Notes under the pieces: generated by a model
The model's input: the letters and a program-made list of their open reading frames with translations, nothing else
The model's database searches: none
Told to the model about the DNA's origin: nothing
Program-made: the position numbers and the translations under genes
Shown: positions 1,212 to 43,803 of the stretch, in pieces
How the letters are laid out: every line of letters starts with the position of its first letter
Position numbering within the stretch: position 1 is the first letter of the stretch
Assembly (NCBI GenBank): GCA_018167155.1
Contig: GCA_018167155.1_4332.1
Length of the DNA stretch: 43,803 nt
Strand: one strand, 5' to 3'
Source: a phage

Positions 1212-1505
1212 TTATTTGTGTCTCCAGATGTATTGTCGTCTCTGCGGTTTCGTCGGAATATCTTCATAACCCAGCGATTTCCAGTAATTAAATAGCCGAT
1301 TAGCAATAGCCGCGCGCTCCTGTGTCTTAAACTCACCGAGATTCACGGCCTTCCCGTTCTGGAATCCACAGGCGCGGACAGCTTTGCGTCTGGCCTGAAT
1401 CTCGGGGTACATCGCGTTACGGCGGCGCTTGTATATCTGTGTTTTAGCTCTCGGTGACAGCGGCGCAAGGCCGCTTCGTTTCAGGATGTCAGTTGCGAGG
1501 CTCAT
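1212..1505 (-). CDS. Hypothetical basic protein
   Basis: ORF track 1212..1529; internal ATG at 1505 overlaps the upstream stop as ATGA (translational coupling). Confidence 0.5.
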   Translation of the reverse strand: MSLATDILKRSGLAPLSPRAKTQIYKRRRNAMYPEIQARRKAVRACGFQNGKAVNLGEFKTQERAAIANRLFNYWKSLGYEDIPTKPQRRQYIWRHK

Positions 1506-1882
1506 GCTATGGCCCCACATTTCGAGCATGTCTGGAAGTCGTCCACATCATGCATAACCCACTCATGCTTGCATTCCTGCGCGTCTTCTTTACGACATCC
1601 GGATTGCCCCATAGCGTCTCCAACCCCTTCCACATGTGTAACGGACCCACAGTTCGCGCACTCGACGTAATCCGGGAACTGGTCTTTGTATTTCTGTAAC
1701 TCGGCTTCCGCTTTTTCGGCACGTGTCAAAAAGCTGAAAGCGTCATTGAGTATCTGCACACGCCGCGCCACGAGTTCCTTGAACTTACGCTCAAGTTCCT
1801 CGTAGTCTTCGTATCTTACGTATTCGCCGTCAGCATCCGCTACACAAAAACCGTTGTTAGAGTATCTCTGAACCATAATCAT
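1502..1882 (-). CDS. Cys-rich hypothetical protein, paralog A (coiled-coil N-term, QSGCRKEDxQECxHxW motif)
   Basis: 126 aa ORF; shares the motif QSGCRKED(A/T)QEC(K/E)H(E/S)W and a C-terminal CxxCG with the protein at 2079..2585. Confidence 0.55.
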   Translation of the reverse strand: MIMVQRYSNNGFCVADADGEYVRYEDYEELERKFKELVARRVQILNDAFSFLTRAEKAEAELQKYKDQFPDYVECANCGSVTHVEGVGDAMGQSGCRKEDAQECKHEWVMHDVDDFQTCSKCGAIA

Positions 1883-2082
1883 TTCTCCTGTTTACCAAGT
1901 CGCTTAGGTGAGCAGATAGTGCGTACCTCTGAATCGATGGGCTTGTCGCCCTGAAACAGGAAGTGCGCGTTCTCTGCGGCGCGTGCCGCTGACTGGCACG
2001 CCTCCATCGAGTAAAACGTTTCTGACGCCGCTAGTTGCATCTGGCCTGCGGATAGTACCCAGATAAAAAGGATGCTGGTCAT
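1879..2082 (-). CDS. Hypothetical small protein with hydrophobic N-terminus
   Basis: 67 aa ORF tiled between the two paralogs with 4-nt overlaps on both sides. Confidence 0.45.
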   Translation of the reverse strand: MTSILFIWVLSAGQMQLAASETFYSMEACQSAARAAENAHFLFQGDKPIDSEVRTICSPKRLGKQEK

Positions 2083-2585
2083 TCAACTCTCCCGCACGCA
2101 CGACACACAACATAATCCTCGTCAGACAACACCCAATCGTGCTCGCATTCCTGAGTATCGTTTTTCGGTTTATATTCCTTGTCGTCCCACTCACGTTTAC
2201 AACATTTAGAGCAAAGCTCACTACCAGGAACGTTGTTCGGATTGCCTTCGCTGAGAAACAACCCAGGCATAATAATCCAAGAGTGCTCGCATTCCTGAGT
2301 ATCTTCCTTACGGCAACCGGATTGCTCAGGCCCGTGCCCACCTACTACGTAGCTCTCCCCTTTAGGTAAAGGACCGCCCCGCCCTGTTACGCGGCCAAAG
2401 TCTTCATTCATCAACTTTATTGTCTCCTGCAACTCAGCCACCAGTGCCGAAGCATCACGTAACTGGTTCTTAAGTGACAGCACCTCATGGGCCAGGTCTT
2501 CGCACTGTTGCTTGTATGGGTTGTTACTTACCTGCTGCCGTAGCTGGTCAATCAGGTATTCGAATACTTCGTTTTTGTTACTCAT
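2079..2585 (-). CDS. Cys-rich hypothetical protein, paralog B (two copies of the QEC-H-W module)
   Basis: 168 aa; N-terminal coiled coil, then SGCRKEDTQECEHSW and DTQECEHDW repeats and a C-terminal CRACG. First gene after the leftward promoter at about 2616-2644. Confidence 0.55.
   Translation of the reverse strand: MSNKNEVFEYLIDQLRQQVSNNPYKQQCEDLAHEVLSLKNQLRDASALVAELQETIKLMNEDFGRVTGRGGPLPKGESYVVGGHGPEQSGCRKEDTQECEHSWIIMPGLFLSEGNPNNVPGSELCSKCCKREWDDKEYKPKNDTQECEHDWVLSDEDYVVCRACGRVE
2148..2303. repeat. Two exact 21-bp direct repeats (GTGCTCGCATTCCTGAGTATC) inside paralog B
   Basis: Copies at 2148-2168 and 2283-2303; a related copy sits near 1561-1580 in paralog A. Confidence 0.7.
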
Positions 2586-4266: not shown

Positions 4267-4295
4267 TTGATTTCCCATTATTCGCAATGTATACT
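4267..4295 (+). promoter_or_regulatory. Sigma70-like promoter TTGATT-N17-TATACT for the rightward replication operon
   Basis: Hexamers at 4267-4272 and 4290-4295, about 30 nt upstream of the SD and ATG at 4328; lacks the AATAG palindrome. Confidence 0.5.
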
Positions 4296-4327
4296 TGGTT
4301 TCGTTAACTGATAGTGAGGGTTTGAGA

Positions 4328-4498
4328 ATGACTCAGAATGAGGTAGCTGAGCGTATCGGGGTTACTCGTCGCACGCTTAATAACTGGTTAAAGAGTGGGA
4401 AGTTCCCGGATTGTTGTATTCGCATTATGGGTCGCCGGCAGCCAGGTACGTTCGACCCGGAGAAAGTGGAAGCGTGGATTAAGGAGAATGTGAAATGA
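4328..4498 (+). CDS. AlpA/excisionase-like HTH DNA-binding protein
   Basis: ORF track 4295..4498; ATG at 4328 after GAGGG; motif VAERIGVTRRTLNNWLKSGKFP...VEAWI resembles AlpA-family HTH regulators. Confidence 0.5.
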   Translation: MTQNEVAERIGVTRRTLNNWLKSGKFPDCCIRIMGRRQPGTFDPEKVEAWIKENVK

Positions 4499-7281: not shown

Positions 7282-7354
7282 TTGATATGTGAATAGTACC
7301 ATATTAATTATTTTATAAAAGCACATTGACATGTGAATAGTTCGCTATTATAGT
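7282..7354. promoter_or_regulatory. Divergent control region with two copies of the AATAG-N4-CTATT operator-like palindrome
   Basis: Copy 1 AATAGTACCATATT at 7292-7305; copy 2 AATAGTTCGCTATT at 7336-7349 inside TTGACA(7326-7331)-N17-TATAGT(7349-7354), which drives the + gene at 7386. A minus-strand TACTAT over copy 1 may serve the XRE gene. Confidence 0.55.
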
Positions 7355-10170: not shown

Positions 10171-10199
10171 TTGACACCTGAATAGCGAACTATTATAGT
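10171..10199 (+). promoter_or_regulatory. Sigma70-like promoter TTGACA-N17-TATAGT with AATAG-N4-CTATT palindrome in the spacer
   Basis: TTGACA 10171-10176, TATAGT 10194-10199, palindrome AATAGCGAACTATT at 10181-10194. Confidence 0.6.
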
Positions 10200-14492: not shown

Positions 14493-14796
14493 AGAGGGCC
14501 GCGTACAGAAATACGCAAAAGAGCGATTCGAGGCCATTGGTGGCCTCGTTCGTAAACTTTCCTACGAAAACAGACGCGCAGCGATGGATTTGTTAGTGGT
14601 CCTGCCCGGCGGCATCATCTGGTTCGTCGAGATTAAGAAAGACGAAAACACGAAGCCAGACCCGCACCAGCTACGGGAACATGAGAGATTCCGGAAACGT
14701 GGTGCGAATGTTTTTGTCGTTGGTTCGTTTAAACAGGTTGACACCCTAATAGCGAACTATTATAGTCAGCCCTACACCAACAATATAAGGAATTGA
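14482..14796 (+). CDS. VRR-NUC domain nuclease
   Basis: 104 aa; DLLVVLPGGIIWFVEIKK...QLREHERFRKRGANVFVV matches the VRR-NUC PD-(D/E)XK pattern. Confidence 0.6.
   Translation: MATKEGRVQKYAKERFEAIGGLVRKLSYENRRAAMDLLVVLPGGIIWFVEIKKDENTKPDPHQLREHERFRKRGANVFVVGSFKQVDTLIANYYSQPYTNNIRN
14738..14766 (+). promoter_or_regulatory. Sigma70-like promoter TTGACA-N17-TATAGT with AATAG-N4-CTATT palindrome, inside the 3' end of the VRR-NUC gene
   Basis: TTGACA 14738-14743, TATAGT 14761-14766, palindrome AATAGCGAACTATT at about 14748-14761. Confidence 0.55.
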
Positions 14797-17223: not shown

Positions 17224-17253
17224 GAAAAGGCCCCGTTTGGGGCCTTAGTTTTA
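17224..17253. terminator. Bidirectional terminator between convergent operons
   Basis: AAAAGGCCCC-GTTT-GGGGCCTT followed by TAGTTTTA; flanked by T/A runs in both orientations. Confidence 0.65.
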
Positions 17254-36538: not shown

Positions 36539-36564
36539 TAAGGCCCCATAACGGGGCCTTTTAT
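36539..36564. terminator. Terminator hairpin between convergent genes
   Basis: AGGCCCC-ATAAC-GGGGCCT followed by TTTTAT; identical stem to the element at 38641. Confidence 0.65.
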
Positions 36565-38329: not shown

Positions 38330-38651
38330 GAACCACTTGAAGGTCTACGGGCCTTATGGCTTGCATTCATGGAACGGTGGGTATGACGTAAACGATGACC
38401 TGCCGATACGTAAAATAGCACGCGCGGCGCGACGCAATGTAAAGCCGGGTGACGTGCTAGTCATACGAGATAATAATGTCATTGTTGAGGTTGAGAAAGT
38501 TCATGGCATGTTTCTCACAGTAATACCTGTTGATGTTGCTTTGCGTGACGCAAGGCCCTACCGAGAAGCTGGGGGTGGTAAAACTGGTAAATACACATAC
38601 GGCAGGATTGAGATACATAAAACACATCTTGATAAAGTTAAGGCCCCATAA
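38307..38651 (+). CDS. Hypothetical protein
   Basis: ORF track 38286..38651; internal ATG at 38307 after GGAGTGGTGG; 114 aa basic protein. Confidence 0.5.
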   Translation: MSLRNNLKNHLKVYGPYGLHSWNGGYDVNDDLPIRKIARAARRNVKPGDVLVIRDNNVIVEVEKVHGMFLTVIPVDVALRDARPYREAGGGKTGKYTYGRIEIHKTHLDKVKAP

Positions 38652-38664
38652 CGGGGCCTTTTTC
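38641..38664. terminator. Rho-independent terminator between the plus cassette and the portal gene
   Basis: AGGCCCC-ATAAC-GGGGCCT followed by TTTTTCTTT. Confidence 0.7.
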
Positions 38665-38665
38665 T

Positions 38666-40138
38666 TTACTGCGGTTGTTGTTGAGCCGACTGCGGAATCT
38701 CTCCTGATACCTGAGTAACCGCACCCAACGGCAGCGGCGCGTCCTCGATAGCGTTCTGAATATCCTCGTCTGTCCAGTCGATTACACCCGCTTTACGCAA
38801 CGCAGCATAATAAGCAGTAGCGGGTAGCAGGCCGGCGTTAATATCCGCCATCCACTGCGCTCGTTCGGGCGCGGTCATCGGTTGCAGGAAGAACTCCATG
38901 TTAAGTTTAAACTCAATCTCTGTGCCTTCACGCAACCCTAACATCGCGGCTACCCAGCGCAACGCATCGGTGTACGCCATGCTTACGTTACGCGCAATTG
39001 TCGCCATAACAGACGTGTCGGCGCCGCGTTGCAGGCGGGCCGATTCGGCGGTGATTTGCTGCGTCGGGGTGATAAGCTGTGCGCCAATCTGAATGGCCTG
39101 ATTCTCCTTATCCAGCATGTTCTGCTTGGCGAGGTTGTTCTCTCCAGCCTGAACCAGAAACGCGTTGCCGCCGTAACCGATGTTATGGCCTGAACGCGAC
39201 CCCATACGCACGCCGTGGGGGTTGGCTTCTTTCCACTGTTCCATGCTCATGTTCTCGCCAGGGGCGATGAACAGAGTGGGCTGGCCTACAACGAAGCTGG
39301 ATTCCTCATTGTCTGCGCTGTTGCGGAAATGTCCGATATTAAGCTCAGCCAACGGCAGCAAAGGTGCGTCGTCAATGGTTGCATCGTTGTTGCTCGCCCC
39401 AATGAACGTGAACGGGATTTTACCGCGCAACTGTTCGCCGAGTTCCGGGAATATCTCGATTACTTCGTCCTTAGCGCCACCTTCGGCATCGAAGCGGTAA
39501 ATGCGCTGGCGATAACGACCGTCAATCAGGTCAAGGACGCGGTATTGTTCGCCGAACTTTGTTTCGAACTCTGCACCAGGTTCTGAGTATTCCCATACCT
39601 CACGCAGCACGACCATTGTCACACGGTTAACTGAACCGACGCGGGTCAGTCGCCAGTTGATGATGTTCTCTGCGGTGTAGAATGCGATGACCGGGTTTAA
39701 TAATCCTGCGTTCTGTTCGGCTGCTGTTGCCGCTGCTGTCTCCGGCGCATCCACCAGCAAGCCCCCACGCCCCATTGAGTCAATCTCCATTAGCGTGTCC
39801 TGCGCGTGCTGCCACAGCCCGACACCGGAGCCATCAGCATTGCGCAACAGGTACTCCAGTTCAGGCGGGATAATCTGCTCAGGGTCTTTGTGCATCACTG
39901 ACCCCACCATCCCAGCCAGGGTACGTTTAGTGAAGTTGTAGCAAATAGCGCCGTTCTCGTATTCTTCCTGGCGCTGTGCAGCGTAGGTCTGGTCGGGTTC
40001 GTTCTTCCCGACATTTCGAAGATAGCGAATAAGGTCGCCTTCCAGCGCGTGTCGCACCTTCTGCCATTTATTGAAGTGATGCAGCCATTCCCGGTGTTTT
40101 GTCTTAACACCCTGATTCTGACCGTTCATAGTTAACAT
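38666..40138 (-). CDS. Portal protein
   Basis: 490 aa directly downstream of TerL; SD AAGAGGA; call rests on size and conserved TerS-TerL-portal-MuF synteny. Confidence 0.65.
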   Translation of the reverse strand: MLTMNGQNQGVKTKHREWLHHFNKWQKVRHALEGDLIRYLRNVGKNEPDQTYAAQRQEEYENGAICYNFTKRTLAGMVGSVMHKDPEQIIPPELEYLLRNADGSGVGLWQHAQDTLMEIDSMGRGGLLVDAPETAAATAAEQNAGLLNPVIAFYTAENIINWRLTRVGSVNRVTMVVLREVWEYSEPGAEFETKFGEQYRVLDLIDGRYRQRIYRFDAEGGAKDEVIEIFPELGEQLRGKIPFTFIGASNNDATIDDAPLLPLAELNIGHFRNSADNEESSFVVGQPTLFIAPGENMSMEQWKEANPHGVRMGSRSGHNIGYGGNAFLVQAGENNLAKQNMLDKENQAIQIGAQLITPTQQITAESARLQRGADTSVMATIARNVSMAYTDALRWVAAMLGLREGTEIEFKLNMEFFLQPMTAPERAQWMADINAGLLPATAYYAALRKAGVIDWTDEDIQNAIEDAPLPLGAVTQVSGEIPQSAQQQPQ

Positions 40139-40150
40139 TGAATAATCCTC

Positions 40151-41422
40151 TTAAAGTGCGAAAGTCACCGGGACGTTAATAACTGGTTTGCGAATCGGCA
40201 TTTCATATGCAATTGGGTATGTGGTTCCGTCATTCTGGTGGTCCACGCCGCCAGATTTATCCGGTTCGCCGTTCTTGTCGTAAGCCTGTTGCTCCAGGCA
40301 TCGCGCCGTAACTGGGCAAGCCTGTTCATTAATCATGACCATACCAGATTCAAGCGCCTTATTCATCGCCGATACGCGGTCTTTAACCGGCGGGTTTGTC
40401 GATTTAGCGCGTACTTCGAAACCGGCCTGCTGTAGCTGGGCGATGTCTGAGGTACTGGCGTTGTTGCTTTTACGGTTTTTGCCGCTGGCGTCCGGGTACA
40501 TAACGATATAGTGGCCCTTACTTTTCCAGCGTTCAGTTATAGCCCGCACTACATCCGGCGTATCGAACATATCAACCAACTCGGCAACAGCGTGCCACAC
40601 CTTCCCGCGTTGCACGTAAACTGTGCTCGCCATGTGACCTACGTTAAAGTCCTGCCCGATATACAGAGTCTCGCCAGGCTTGATTGTTTCGCGACTACTA
40701 TTTTTCCTGCGGTCGTAAGCGTAGTAGACCGTCCCAGCCGTGAGGTTCACGAACTCGCCGTTGATGTAGGCGTCGATCAACTGACCCGGGTATGTGTCGC
40801 GTAATGACTGCACATAATCTTCTGGCAGGAACGGGTTAGACAGGGTAGATGCCTGAATCATCTCGTAGCCTGGATTCTTTTTTACTACCCAGCGGTCATG
40901 TACGAAACGGAACCCTTCCGGCGTAGTGAACACGGAAACGGTATTAGCCGGTTTCGGCGTAATAGGTTTATACGTCCGCGGTAACTGGCGGTTACGGGCG
41001 ATTACTTTGTTCCACGCGTGCTCAGCGTGTTCCATGTTAAGGGTGTCCAATTCGTCGATTTTTGCACGAAACGATTCGTAGCCAACTATTCGTGCTGGAT
41101 TATCGAGTGTACGCAGGACAAAATCCCCGAATTGTCCTGAAGACGTATATATTATGTTGTCTGACTTGTTGTATTTGTACCGGATACCCCAGTCCGTCAG
41201 CTTCTCTTCCATACGAGGCGCAAGGATAAGACGTACCAGGTCGTAGGTAGGCTCGTACATGGCGATGATAGAATCGCTACCACCTTCCATACTGTCCAGT
41301 AGCGCGGAGTTGCACATAACCTCTGATTTCCCGGTGCCGAAGCCAGCTACGAACGCAGGGAACTTGCAATGCATACCGAGAAACGCGCCTTGCGGTTCTG
41401 TCGCCGTGATATTAACGTTCAC
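40151..41422 (-). CDS. Terminase large subunit
   Basis: 423 aa; Walker A FVAGFGTGKSE near the N-terminus, acidic nuclease-like C-terminal region; GTG start with AAGGTG SD. Confidence 0.8.
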   Translation of the reverse strand: MNVNITATEPQGAFLGMHCKFPAFVAGFGTGKSEVMCNSALLDSMEGGSDSIIAMYEPTYDLVRLILAPRMEEKLTDWGIRYKYNKSDNIIYTSSGQFGDFVLRTLDNPARIVGYESFRAKIDELDTLNMEHAEHAWNKVIARNRQLPRTYKPITPKPANTVSVFTTPEGFRFVHDRWVVKKNPGYEMIQASTLSNPFLPEDYVQSLRDTYPGQLIDAYINGEFVNLTAGTVYYAYDRRKNSSRETIKPGETLYIGQDFNVGHMASTVYVQRGKVWHAVAELVDMFDTPDVVRAITERWKSKGHYIVMYPDASGKNRKSNNASTSDIAQLQQAGFEVRAKSTNPPVKDRVSAMNKALESGMVMINEQACPVTARCLEQQAYDKNGEPDKSGGVDHQNDGTTYPIAYEMPIRKPVINVPVTFAL

Positions 41423-41921: not shown

Positions 41922-42011
41922 AGAATCCCCTTGCATATGCGTCTGACCATCAGAGCGCATCAGACGCGCCCTGCGCGTCTAAAGGGATTATATAAGGGGA
42001 TTGGGCGGGAT

Positions 42012-42040
42012 GTACAGAAAAGCCCTCAGTAGAGGGCTTG
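42012..42040 (-). terminator. Rho-independent terminator ending the right-end early operon
   Basis: Minus-strand hairpin AAGCCCTC-TACT-GAGGGCTT followed by TTTTCT. Confidence 0.55.
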
Positions 42041-42140
42041 TGTCAGTTATATAGGCCGTGTCGTGGTGCTCTTTTGCCATCGCCGCCGTAATGGTCGTTA
42101 GCCACAGCGATAACCCAGGCGTTAGGGATCACCAACAGTC

Positions 42141-42377
42141 TCATTCCCCGCTCTCCCCTTTAGCAATGCGTTGTTCAGTTTTAGTGATACCCCGGCGCGT
42201 GAATAACACAGGGCTTGTCTTAACGTGCGTCATCAGACGGTTGTTATAAATTACGTGGCGCTCGCAGTTCACGTCTTTGCTGTACTTGGCAATCGTCATT
42301 TCGTTGAGGCCAGTTTGTCGGCATGTCTCCGCCATCGTGCCAAATTCTTTAATCAGGTTCGGAATGCTGGTAATCAT
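42141..42377 (-). CDS. Hypothetical protein (possible HTH)
   Basis: ORF track 42141..42401; internal ATG (MITSIPNLIKEFG...) is the likelier start. Confidence 0.45.
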   Translation of the reverse strand: MITSIPNLIKEFGTMAETCRQTGLNEMTIAKYSKDVNCERHVIYNNRLMTHVKTSPVLFTRRGITKTEQRIAKGESGE

Positions 42378-42546
42378 CCTAAGAAATTCCTCGTTGTCCA
42401 CATCGCATTCGGGTATTTGTTATCGCGATCCTGTACCACGGCAATCATGTTTCCGCGTTGCACCAGGCAGAAGTGCCGTTGTTGGTCGCCGTTGTACCTG
42501 CGCCAGATTGCTTCTTCGATTGCTGCGTTGATGTCACTGAACACAA

Positions 42547-42777
42547 TCAATCCTCCATACTTAGTAGAACGTATCCCGGCAGGTAAACCCCAACGTCCGC
42601 AACATGGATAACGCGGCGGTAAACGATACGTCCTGTGTATTCGCCGTTTTCATATTCTCTCAGGCACAGAGTGTCGTCTTCCTTGAAATCGCGGTCGTTT
42701 AATCGCAGTTCTGCCAGCTTGATTCCTGCCATAACAGGCTCAAAATGCTCAGGTAATATCTTTAGTTCGTGAAACAT
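42547..42777 (-). CDS. DUF3850 / ASCH-like (PUA-fold) phage protein
   Basis: 76 aa; MFHELKILPEHFEPVMAGIKLAELRLNDRDF...EYTGR matches the DUF3850 pattern as I recall it. Confidence 0.5.
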   Translation of the reverse strand: MFHELKILPEHFEPVMAGIKLAELRLNDRDFKEDDTLCLREYENGEYTGRIVYRRVIHVADVGVYLPGYVLLSMED

Positions 42778-42781
42778 ACCC

Positions 42782-42964
42782 TTACCCCACTATCTCATCG
42801 CCAAGCCACGCTGTTTCTCGTATATCATCAACCACACAAGCGGCGTGCTCACGGCTAATTGCAAAAATGTAGAAGCTGAACTTCTTCCCGTCGGCGTCGA
42901 TGTGGTTAACCGAGTAGGGTTTCCACAGGACGCCATCGATAACTACTGGTTCAGGCGCTTTCAT
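42782..42964 (-). CDS. Hypothetical protein
   Basis: 60 aa ORF tiled in the early block. Confidence 0.45.
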   Translation of the reverse strand: MKAPEPVVIDGVLWKPYSVNHIDADGKKFSFYIFAISREHAACVVDDIRETAWLGDEIVG

Positions 42965-43250
42965 CTTCTGGCCCGACTACATTGTCGTACAGCGGGATTA
43001 TTACGTCGGCCCCGTTCTTTAAGGCCTCGTTTGCAGTGGTGTAATAGGCCAGTGACGAACCACTCTCACCGACGAACAACCCCGCGTACACGTTCGGTTC
43101 TTGCGTCTTAATAGCCAGTAGCTCTTTAAACGCCTCCAGTTGAAACTCACCGTTAATTGACAGTTGCCCACCTAACGTCTGTTTCTCTGACTCAAGAACA
43201 TGAATACGGCGTTCGAGTGATGCGATTGTGATTTTAGGCATTGGTATCAC
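42951..43250 (-). CDS. Hypothetical protein
   Basis: 99 aa ORF tiled in the early block. Confidence 0.5.
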   Translation of the reverse strand: MIPMPKITIASLERRIHVLESEKQTLGGQLSINGEFQLEAFKELLAIKTQEPNVYAGLFVGESGSSLAYYTTANEALKNGADVIIPLYDNVVGPEDESA

Positions 43251-43419
43251 CTTTGTTCAGGTTAAAGCGGTTAATCAGTTCGCGGCGTGTCTCGTAAAGC
43301 GACTCAACCATTTGCTCCGCTACTGCGATTTTAGTATTAAGGACGTGCATCACGTGCCCGATGTCTACGCCGCCGTTAACAGCCTCTACCATCATCTTTT
43401 CGTATTCGCGGTCAGTCAT
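43234..43419 (-). CDS. Hypothetical protein
   Basis: 61 aa ORF. Confidence 0.45.
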   Translation of the reverse strand: MTDREYEKMMVEAVNGGVDIGHVMHVLNTKIAVAEQMVESLYETRRELINRFNLNKGDTNA

Positions 43420-43573
43420 TTTTACGCTCTCCCCACATGCGATTTAGATACTTATTCTTGTCCGGCCCCGGAAAACTGTTACGTTTCATCAATTCCTCGC
43501 GTGTCGGGAACGGGGTGTGGCTGACTTTACGGCCTACCCGTAATGGTTGGCTTACTTGACCTTGTTCGCTCAT
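43412..43573 (-). CDS. Hypothetical small protein (hand-called, about 53 aa)
   Basis: ATG after AGGAGA, ATGA-coupled to the gene upstream; reads MSEQGQVSQPLRVGRKVSHTPFPTREELMKRNSFPGPDKNKYLNRMWGERKND. Confidence 0.3.
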   Translation of the reverse strand: MSEQGQVSQPLRVGRKVSHTPFPTREELMKRNSFPGPDKNKYLNRMWGERKND

Positions 43574-43719
43574 TTCTTCTCTCCTGCATAAGCTGCTTTA
43601 AGTGCCTGCATCGCCGCGTTCCAGAACGCGTCCGCGGGAATGCTCCCACCAAGGTTGCTAACGGCAATGCGTGCCATCAGTTGCGCGTCTTCGAATGCTT
43701 CGATATCTGTGATTTTCAT
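43570..43719 (-). CDS. Hypothetical small protein (hand-called, 49 aa), first gene after the right-end promoter
   Basis: ATG after GGAG; reads MKITDIEAFEDAQLMARIAVSNLGGSIPADAFWNAAMQALKAAYAGEKK. Confidence 0.3.
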   Translation of the reverse strand: MKITDIEAFEDAQLMARIAVSNLGGSIPADAFWNAAMQALKAAYAGEKK

Positions 43720-43752
43720 CTTCTCTACTCCGTTCTCGTTGTCGATGGAGTA

Positions 43753-43781
43753 AATATAGTAGGGTCGCAGGTAATAGTCAA
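43753..43781 (-). promoter_or_regulatory. Sigma70-like leftward early promoter TTGACT-N17-TATATT with a degenerate AATAG/CTAGT palindrome over the -35
   Basis: Plus agtcaa 43776-43781 and aatata 43753-43758; about 30 nt upstream of the first early ORF. Confidence 0.5.
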
Positions 43782-43803
43782 CTAGTCATTGCAGAAAATA
43801 GAT

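Follow-up and report, generated by a model that had tools for sequence, protein, structure and literature searches.

Accessory, 'moron-like' operons of small genes are a well-known kind of feature in mosaic phages. In lambdoid phages, delayed-early accessory genes, which the phage can lose in the laboratory, fine-tune DNA and RNA transactions or the interaction with the host. The nin region of lambda is an interlinked chain of genes that can be deleted with plaque formation retained (PMC10695390). Here we describe a block of small leftward genes in a phage DNA of 43,803 bases (GenBank assembly GCA_018167155.1, contig GCA_018167155.1_4332.1), the whole of which is called the window. The window is a complete Kagunavirus genome (Guernseyvirinae); Kagunaviruses are small lytic siphophages of E. 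coli. An initial annotation had described the block (42141-43790) as seven small open reading frames (ORFs) at the right end of the genome, behind a strong promoter, and as a candidate host-takeover module; its label as an early block was an assumption. We find nine ORFs (o1 to o9) between a promoter and a terminator, and propose that the block is probably a dispensable accessory operon of a lytic Kagunavirus, nin-like in organisation and transcribed by the host RNA polymerase.

Comparison of the block with lambda ninR shows that each is a chain of overlapping small genes without a structural role, and that one gene of the block, o8, encodes a detectable homolog of NinH. The block differs in its position, as ninR lies within the PR transcript, between the replication genes and a regulator of the Q type. 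It is also equipped with a promoter and terminators of its own, whereas ninR depends on N antitermination, and contains no nin gene besides the NinH-like o8. A second described system is the distal pL operon of HK97, which encodes the DUF2737 protein gp38. o2 shares homology with gp38 in its C-terminal half, and both are encoded by small genes in accessory operons, but the neighbors of gp38 are abc2, erf and xis, whereas those of o2 are orphan genes. In organisation, and partly in homology, the counterparts of the block would be these two lambdoid delayed-early accessory regions.

The closest described blocks are those of other Guernseyvirinae, including K1H, K1G, JSSK01 and K1B4 (vB_EcoS-K1_SXAU_B4) and the Salmonella phages SETP3, Jersey and BPS11Q3, in which position, promoter, leader and terminator are the same. 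A search with 1.9 kb around the block gave matches in 419 phage records, the top ones being MirsaeidiM_Esher4, K1H, K1G and ORH_001 (~92% identity over 85-90% of the 1.9-kb length), and the Kagunavirus records are 88-92% identical in DNA to the block of the window. The genes of these relatives are already annotated as hypothetical, DUF2737/NinZ-like, NinH(-like) or RNA-binding protein. Only the cargo differs, with the window containing an ASCH gene and a particular C terminus of o4, and lacking the extra genes that many relatives have before o1, after o1 or after o8. The block is an accessory operon already found in hundreds of Kagunavirus and Jerseyvirus genomes, to which the window adds one cargo combination. 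As it stands, one more copy of a known operon is of little significance. For the comparisons below, a set of 47 loci was assembled, consisting of the window and 46 relatives (GenBank records and IMG/VR contigs), anchored on the promoter and the terminator.

Boundaries and coding content of the operon

The location of the block at the right end of the genome turned out to be a linearisation artefact. Joining window position 1 to position 43803 makes the map collinear with 40 relatives, and in records that are cut differently the block lies directly between the holin-holin-endolysin genes and terS/terL, all on one strand. Because the 'end' is a cut in a circular map and the block is internal elsewhere, the block is probably not at a genome end that enters the cell first. 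The pre-early modules of T5 and the class I genes of T7 are matched by the block in their host-type promoter, but apparently not in their position at the genome end, and the host shutoff associated with them is not seen in the relative K1B4.

A sigma-70-type promoter, TTGACT-N17-TATATT, is present on the minus strand at 43753-43781, where the initial annotation had placed it, with the -35 hexamer at 43781-43776 and the -10 hexamer at 43758-43753 (10 of 12 matches to the consensus). A consensus match alone means little here, as a promoter scan of the region returned 6 sites against 3.3 ± 2.2 expected by chance. The site is nevertheless convincing, because its hexamers are invariant across loci while its spacer varies: neither hexamer changes in any of the 41 aligned Guernseyvirinae loci, Jerseyvirus included, and the 17-nt spacer is highly variable. 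In Salmonella Jerseyvirus loci the flanks of the promoter are just ~76% identical. Judging by its near-consensus sequence, this host-type promoter should work without a phage factor. It is followed by a near-invariant 33-nt leader (43720-43752, minus strand, alignment of 41 loci), which ends in a Shine-Dalgarno sequence and the first start codon (…CATCGACAACGAGAACGGAGTAGAGAAG-ATG), and which is retained even when the first downstream gene is a different one.

The leader was also searched for an operator. The sole inverted repeat in the promoter and leader, TACTCC-N15-GGAGTA, was considered as an operator or RNA hairpin and rejected, as the left arm reads TAGTTC or TAGCTC in Jerseyvirus, with no compensation in the right arm, and the repeat folds only weakly (z -1.9). 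Transcription also probably starts downstream of the left arm. No inverted-repeat operator is thus conserved in the promoter and leader of these loci.

Near-identical promoters of the form TTGACA-N17-TATAGT (11 of 12 matches) are present in the replication module at 7326-7354, 10171-10199 and 14738-14766, on the plus strand. These three have a common conserved spacer with the palindrome AATAG-N4-CTATT, which looks like a putative operator for a phage regulator co-controlling three transcription units. A promoter family common to the block and the replication module was considered and rejected, since the block promoter lacks this spacer.

On its upstream side, across the linearisation point, the operon is limited by the terminator of the endolysin gene (window positions 32-1, minus strand). 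It consists of an 8-bp GC-rich stem (ATCCCGGC / GCCGGGAT), a 9-nt loop and a T8 run (-13.8 kcal/mol, z -3.1), lies just upstream of the promoter, and is kept in 41 loci. The terminator scan missed it because its loop is longer than 8 nt. On the downstream side, the operon is closed by a terminator at 42014-42039 (minus strand; AAGCCCTC-TACT-GAGGGCTT followed by TTCTGT; -15.6 kcal/mol, z -4.3), which is conserved; in the Jerseyvirus stem, C:G pairs have become G:C in a compensatory manner. A terminator before the terminase genes had been anticipated in the initial annotation, and is indeed present, but lies to the left of 42141 and so outside the interval given for the block. The two terminators would shield the unit from its neighbors, the upstream lysis cassette and the downstream terminase genes.

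Four independent metagenomic contigs from IMG/VR (L031, L042, L045 and L048) start or stop within 8 nt of the window start, in the T8/A8 run of the endolysin terminator. These shared ends could reflect a common convention or a homopolymer assembly effect, or could hint at a preferred physical end.

Nine leftward ORFs were counted downstream of the promoter, rather than seven. Eight of them lie within 42141-43790, and the ninth (42144-42043) extends, like the terminator, further to the left. Most junctions are ATGA or longer overlaps of 8-14 nt, which suggests that the ORFs are translationally coupled, and a Shine-Dalgarno sequence precedes most of them. The near-consensus promoter and the invariant leader would thus drive nine overlapping, coupled small genes.

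The ORFs are very short (33-96 amino acids), and Pfam-type families are recognisable in just three of them (o2, o6 and o8), leaving six with none, as might be seen for chance ORFs in a non-coding spacer or for functionless, decayed remnants. This explanation is almost certainly wrong. The ratio of nonsynonymous to synonymous substitution rates (dN/dS), calculated from up to 46 distinct homologs for each ORF, is 0.04-0.20 across the nine, compared with 0.055 for the endolysin gene and 0.16 for terS, which effectively refutes it. Every ORF also matches a PHROG family (E 1e-18 to 1e-36), the chain is tight, with overlapping junctions and Shine-Dalgarno sequences, and gene order is kept across two genera. 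Because of their low dN/dS and their PHROG matches, the nine ORFs are real genes under purifying selection.

At the N terminus, o3 seemed to resemble o8 in its long form, and inserted genes seemed to share the starts 'MGREEM' and 'MDNEEFLRM'. These likenesses were dismissed as artefacts of calling the longest ORF, because the residues concerned come from translating the 3' end of each preceding gene in a different frame.

Conserved scaffold and exchangeable cargo

The slot between promoter and terminator measures 1.3-2.6 kb, and 49 ORF families were found in the 47 loci. The scaffold has the fixed order o1, o2, o3, o4, o5 (in Kagunavirus only), o7, o8. Its conserved members are o1, the DUF2737 gene o2, o3 and the NinH-like o8, around which ~40 orphan families come and go. 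Insertions are found on either side of o1 and of o8, after o2, and between o5 and o7. A Pfam search with 20 accessory families of the relatives gave one weak MarR-like match and nothing else. DNA-level exchange with E. coli prophages was considered and rejected, as none of 5,426 complete E. coli genomes contained DNA matching the block. Small orphan genes would be swapped at these several insertion points, with o6 and tail genes such as o9 as cargo. With its promoter, leader, nine genes and both terminators precisely delimited, the unit can be used as a map that separates the conserved scaffold from the exchangeable cargo.

The first gene, o1 (43570-43719, minus strand; phrog_2180; dN/dS 0.20), encodes an acidic, helical protein of 49 amino acids. 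It is present in 47 of 47 loci, mostly as gene 1 or 2 of the operon, and tblastn detected it in 619 phage records, mainly of Guernseyvirinae but also of Skatevirus. It overlaps by ATGA with o2 (43412-43573, minus strand; dN/dS 0.10), which encodes a basic protein of 53 amino acids. Residues 20-46 of o2 pass the threshold for DUF2737 (PF10930, 38.9 bits against a cut-off of 25, E 8.3e-10). o2 is present in 46 of 47 loci, and is labeled 'NinZ-like' in Jerseyvirus records. Its conserved C-terminal half resembles proteins of the lambdoid early-left operon, such as HK97 gp38, which is encoded next to abc2 and erf. No literature on the function of NinZ/DUF2737 was found. The next gene, o3 (43234-43419, minus strand; 61 amino acids, helical; phrog_1402; dN/dS 0.06), is present in 45 of 47 loci as two allelic types with ~50% mutual identity; its homologs contain no Pfam domain and are confined to contigs of Kagunavirus size.

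The less widespread o4 (42951-43241, minus strand; 35 of 47 loci) encodes 96 amino acids from ATG, or 99 from the GTG at 43250. Its PHROG matches, phrog_9023 and phrog_10200, cover residues 4-53 alone, and its dN/dS of 0.16 was calculated from two homologs only. The protein looks modular, because the coiled-coil-like N-terminal ~43% is conserved while different phages have unrelated sequences in place of the C-terminal half. Further downstream, o7 (42374-42544, minus strand; phrog_5407; dN/dS 0.06) is present in 41 of 47 loci and encodes 56 amino acids from the GTG at 42544, or 58 from the TTG at 42550. The GTG start is preceded by a GGAGGA Shine-Dalgarno sequence, and relatives annotate the 56-amino-acid coding sequence. 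The last gene, o9 (42043-42144, minus strand; 33 amino acids; phrog_32259; dN/dS 0.10), has an ATGA overlap with o8. It is annotated in phage JSSK01, and is one of several alternative operon-tail genes among the relatives.

The gene highlighted in the initial annotation as DUF3850/ASCH-like is o6 (42547-42777, minus strand; dN/dS 0.04), which encodes a minimal ASCH domain (DUF3850) of 76 amino acids. The family assignment is sound. o6 scores 66.5 bits against PF12961 (cut-off 22.9, E 2.5e-18) and 22.0 bits against the ASCH family PF04266 (cut-off 21.2, E 2.7e-4), and its residues 2-75 match the structure 3IUW in the PDB (E 1.7e-8). In these matches, and in its motif AGIKLAELR (residues 17-25; G18-K20-E23-R25), which conforms to the GxKxxExR pattern that Iyer et al. 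reportedly described in 2006 as the signature of the ASCH family, o6 resembles ASCH/DUF3850 proteins such as 3IUW and the amidohydrolases of the E. coli YqfB type. It differs from them in being just a 76-amino-acid minimal domain. Presumably, o6 has Glu at the position of the catalytic Thr of YqfB, and lacks the C-terminal segment that bears the YqfB Glu. o6 occurs in ~10 of 47 loci, has homologs scattered over 499 phage records of many genera, and is optional cargo.

The genus Skatevirus provides a comparison for dispensability. In phage seszw, genes 52-59 form a run of small genes directly before terS/terL, headed by a homolog of o1 (70% identity) and preceded by a related promoter and leader. 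This run shares o1 alone with the block, and adjoins a divergent replication-control region instead of a lysis cassette. In the viable genome-reduced mutant seszw_220L, the deposited genome retains gene 52, the o1 homolog, but not genes 53-59 (PMC9825161). By analogy, this supports the dispensability of the equivalent slot in the window, and suggests that the unit would be dispensable on a permissive laboratory host. Such a probably dispensable region could carry payloads in engineered Kagunavirus therapeutic phages.

Upstream of the o1 homolog in the Salmonella phage Seszw_1 (locus L059, 3000-3400), the sequence is AT-rich and contains many GGGATAA-type iteron-like repeats. It adjoins divergent helicase and primase genes, and is probably a replication origin or control region.

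Possible accessory, counter-defence or packaging functions

The only gene besides o1 found in 47 of 47 loci is o8 (42141-42377, minus strand), which encodes 78 amino acids from the ATG at 42377 and has an ATGA overlap with o7. o8 itself scores below the Pfam threshold for Phage_NinH (PF06322, 21.3 bits against 29.8), while homologs 85-96% identical to it carry a precomputed PF06322 assignment. BLASTP aligned o8 with lambda NinH at 31% identity over 51 amino acids (E 4e-9), and hhalign gave a probability of 96.2% (E 2.3e-9, 53 columns), so that homology is detectable over both the HTH (helix-turn-helix) and the C-terminal beta region. The AlphaFold2 model of o8 (predicted local distance difference test score, pLDDT, 67) contains three helices and a beta-hairpin, as does the NinH model.

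The NinH protein of lambda forms a Fis-like dimer that bends DNA, and its overexpression is toxic through DNA binding (PMC7166090). Its DNA binding involves N18, R30, T32, K35 and R56, and R34 is conserved with Fis (PMC7166090). o8 retains T32 (as T28) and K35 (as K31), and the dimerisation histidines H45 and H55 correspond to H41 (near-invariant) and H51 (invariant). In contrast, R30 is replaced by Glu26, which is invariant in 18 homologs, R34 by Ala, N18 by Thr and R56 by Val. A direct comparison of the o8 alignment profile with E. coli Fis was not significant, and a Foldseek search with the o8 model returned generic HTH domains only (E >=0.8, none significant). Because the DNA-binding residues are only partly kept, we label o8 NinH-like and make no claim of Fis mimicry.

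Aca proteins are regulators of anti-CRISPR operons. The architecture of acr-aca operons, and only the architecture, resembles that of the block, with a strong promoter, changing tiny orphan genes and a distal HTH gene, located between late modules. We therefore considered whether the block is a counter-defence or host-takeover island, in which the promoter and leader would form a cassette for changing small inhibitors of host defence systems or host enzymes and o8 would act as an Aca-like regulator. The invariant promoter, the variable small orphans, the conserved HTH gene near the 3' end and the very high turnover (49 families in 47 loci of a small slot) are consistent with this, as is the toxicity of overexpressed lambda NinH through DNA binding (PMC7166090). 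However, no Acr or Aca homology was found, no operator repeat is conserved at the promoter, with the TACTCC repeat not kept in Jerseyvirus, and o8 lacks DNA-binding residues of NinH (R30 is Glu, R34 Ala and R56 Val). Taken together, we regard a counter-defence island as rather unlikely.

Database searches bear on the same question. None of the nine ORFs matched the host defence-system models of PADLOC or the NCBIfam families, and a sequence search of the PDB gave nothing for o1-o5, o7 and o8, with o6 alone matched (3IUW). No homology to known shutoff or counter-defence proteins was found in Pfam, PHROGs, NCBIfam, PADLOC or the PDB, dedicated anti-defence hidden Markov models not being among the models searched, and the absence of any ORF from a known family of such function in Pfam, NCBIfam, PADLOC and the PDB counts against the island. 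The proposal of the initial annotation, that the block is a module with anti-defence or host-shutoff functions, thus holds in part. The block is a separate, non-structural and hypervariable unit (49 families in 47 loci) with homologs among delayed-early lambdoid genes, but none of its genes matches a defence or counter-defence family. A takeover or anti-defence function is a guess from context, though one that is not refuted for individual genes.

Structure prediction, which had been suggested as a check, was applied to o5 and o8, and gave only generic, non-significant HTH matches for o8. o5 (42782-42964, minus strand) is a 60-amino-acid orphan confined to Kagunavirus-type contigs. Its model is a confident small beta-beta-beta-alpha-beta fold (pLDDT 83.5), whose nearest solved neighbors, with weak likeness, include T4 Dmd, AcrIF9, AcrIE2, T7 Gp2 and phi29 p56. 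A search of the model against BFVD returned its own family as the sole match at E <0.001. The fold neighbors, which favor the counter-defence island, are suggestive, and we treat them as a lead from a predicted structure and not as an assignment. In a more specific form of the proposal, the slot would be a counter-defence exchange site common to Guernseyvirinae and Skatevirus, where the invariant cassette expresses any small inhibitor gene that recombines into it, with some orphans being new inhibitors of host enzymes or immune systems (o5 is a candidate) and o8 a regulator or Fis decoy; we consider this distinctly improbable. If an orphan were an inhibitor of a host function, the promoter-leader cassette would provide a handle for mining more of them from related genomes.

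Infection data from relatives also weigh against an island of this kind. Kagunavirus isolates in the BASEL collection are 'highly sensitive' to restriction-modification systems, their sensitivity to the Old defence system varies, and no anti-defence activity is reported for this phage group (10.1101/2024.09.12.612763). Phage K1B4 (GenBank OQ696342) is 92% identical to the window in the block region. During K1B4 infection, phage reads peak at 8.9% and host reads make up at least 91% throughout, so that host RNA is not displaced (PMC12645636). The K1B4 transcriptome argues against global host shutoff, and says little on timing.

The position of the block suggests another explanation, that it is a packaging or late-associated unit. 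It would then be expressed together with the terminase genes or shortly before them, the NinH-like o8 would assist terminase in recognising or bending the pac region, and the remaining genes would be passengers. In Skatevirus and all Guernseyvirinae the block directly precedes terS and shares its strand, and the K1B4 NinH gene falls into the 'middle' class, with the lysozyme and the capsid and other structural genes (PMC12645636). A conserved, strongly structured element between the block and terS also points this way. It occupies 41930-41995 (minus strand), from the terminator to terS, and forms a conserved leader with two adjacent hairpins (-29.9 kcal/mol, z -3.5), including the perfect palindrome AGACGCGC-AGG-GCGCGTCT. 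The element lies just upstream of the annotated terS start and overlaps it, and could be regulatory or pac-related; the true terS start may be a downstream ATG preceded by AAGGGGA. Against a packaging role, the block is separated from terS by the conserved terminator and by a promoter-like site (TGTACA-18-TATAAT, 41987-42016, minus strand, from the promoter scan), which marks the boundary to the next unit and is conserved among Kagunavirus loci. The DNA-contact arginines of NinH are lost in o8, and the seszw mutant is viable without the genes between its o1 homolog and terS. To our knowledge, no packaging role is known for any homolog of the nine genes. We consider this explanation very unlikely.

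We favor the accessory operon as the probable explanation, and infer that the unit is dispensable, that the host RNA polymerase expresses it from the onset of infection, and that its role is modulatory and not one of host shutoff. The host RNA polymerase would read the unit once the DNA enters the cell, independently of the late neighbors, and the products would be small cytoplasmic proteins that modulate infection and do not build the virion. Several points weigh against this proposal. The block lies between lysis and packaging genes, on the late-gene strand, unlike the nin site of lambdoid phages, and lambdoid homologs are found for just two of its nine genes. The case for dispensability comes from another genus with a single common gene, o1, and that gene is kept in the mutant. 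The expression classes of K1B4 are coarse, with 'early' spanning 5-30 min in a latent period of 30 min, and 42 of 57 genes, that for NinH among them, fall into the 'middle' class (PMC12645636). The proposal also overlaps with the counter-defence island, because a strong promoter followed by a hypervariable set of small genes fits both.

Other features of the genome

Pfam searches placed the flanking and replication genes on the map. The gene for the phage lysozyme (endolysin) lies at 97-636, that for TerL at 40151-41422 and that for the portal protein at 38666-40138, all on the minus strand. The replication proteins (an AAA_25 primase/helicase-like protein, DNA polymerase A and a SNF2 helicase) are encoded on the plus strand at ~4.7-17.1 kb. 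Rfam and tRNA scans of the whole window found nothing. A GC-rich hairpin, AAGGCCCC-N4/5-GGGGCCTT, occurs three times, at 17227-17246, 36540-36560 and 38640-38660. These sites lie between structural genes and where the two gene arrays converge, and have a terminator score on both strands.

Four genes are classed as 'early' in K1B4, of which only the HTH gene 008 is named in the text (PMC12645636). In the window, divergent promoter-like sites are present at 4267 (plus strand) and 4287 (minus strand), beside an HTH gene at 4295-4498 (HTH_17/HTH_3). Five further small ORFs form a leftward run of their own (3831-2792), closed by a terminator with a 9-bp stem (2750-2729). The divergent promoter region at ~4.26-4.30 kb is a more conventional immediate-early candidate than the block.

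Upstream of the holins, the region 1212-2585 (minus strand) contains two neighboring ORFs, at 1502-1882 and 2079-2585. Because of their common motif 'SGCRKED(A/T)QEC(K/E)H' and their CxxC pairs, we suggest that they encode paralogous zinc-binding proteins.

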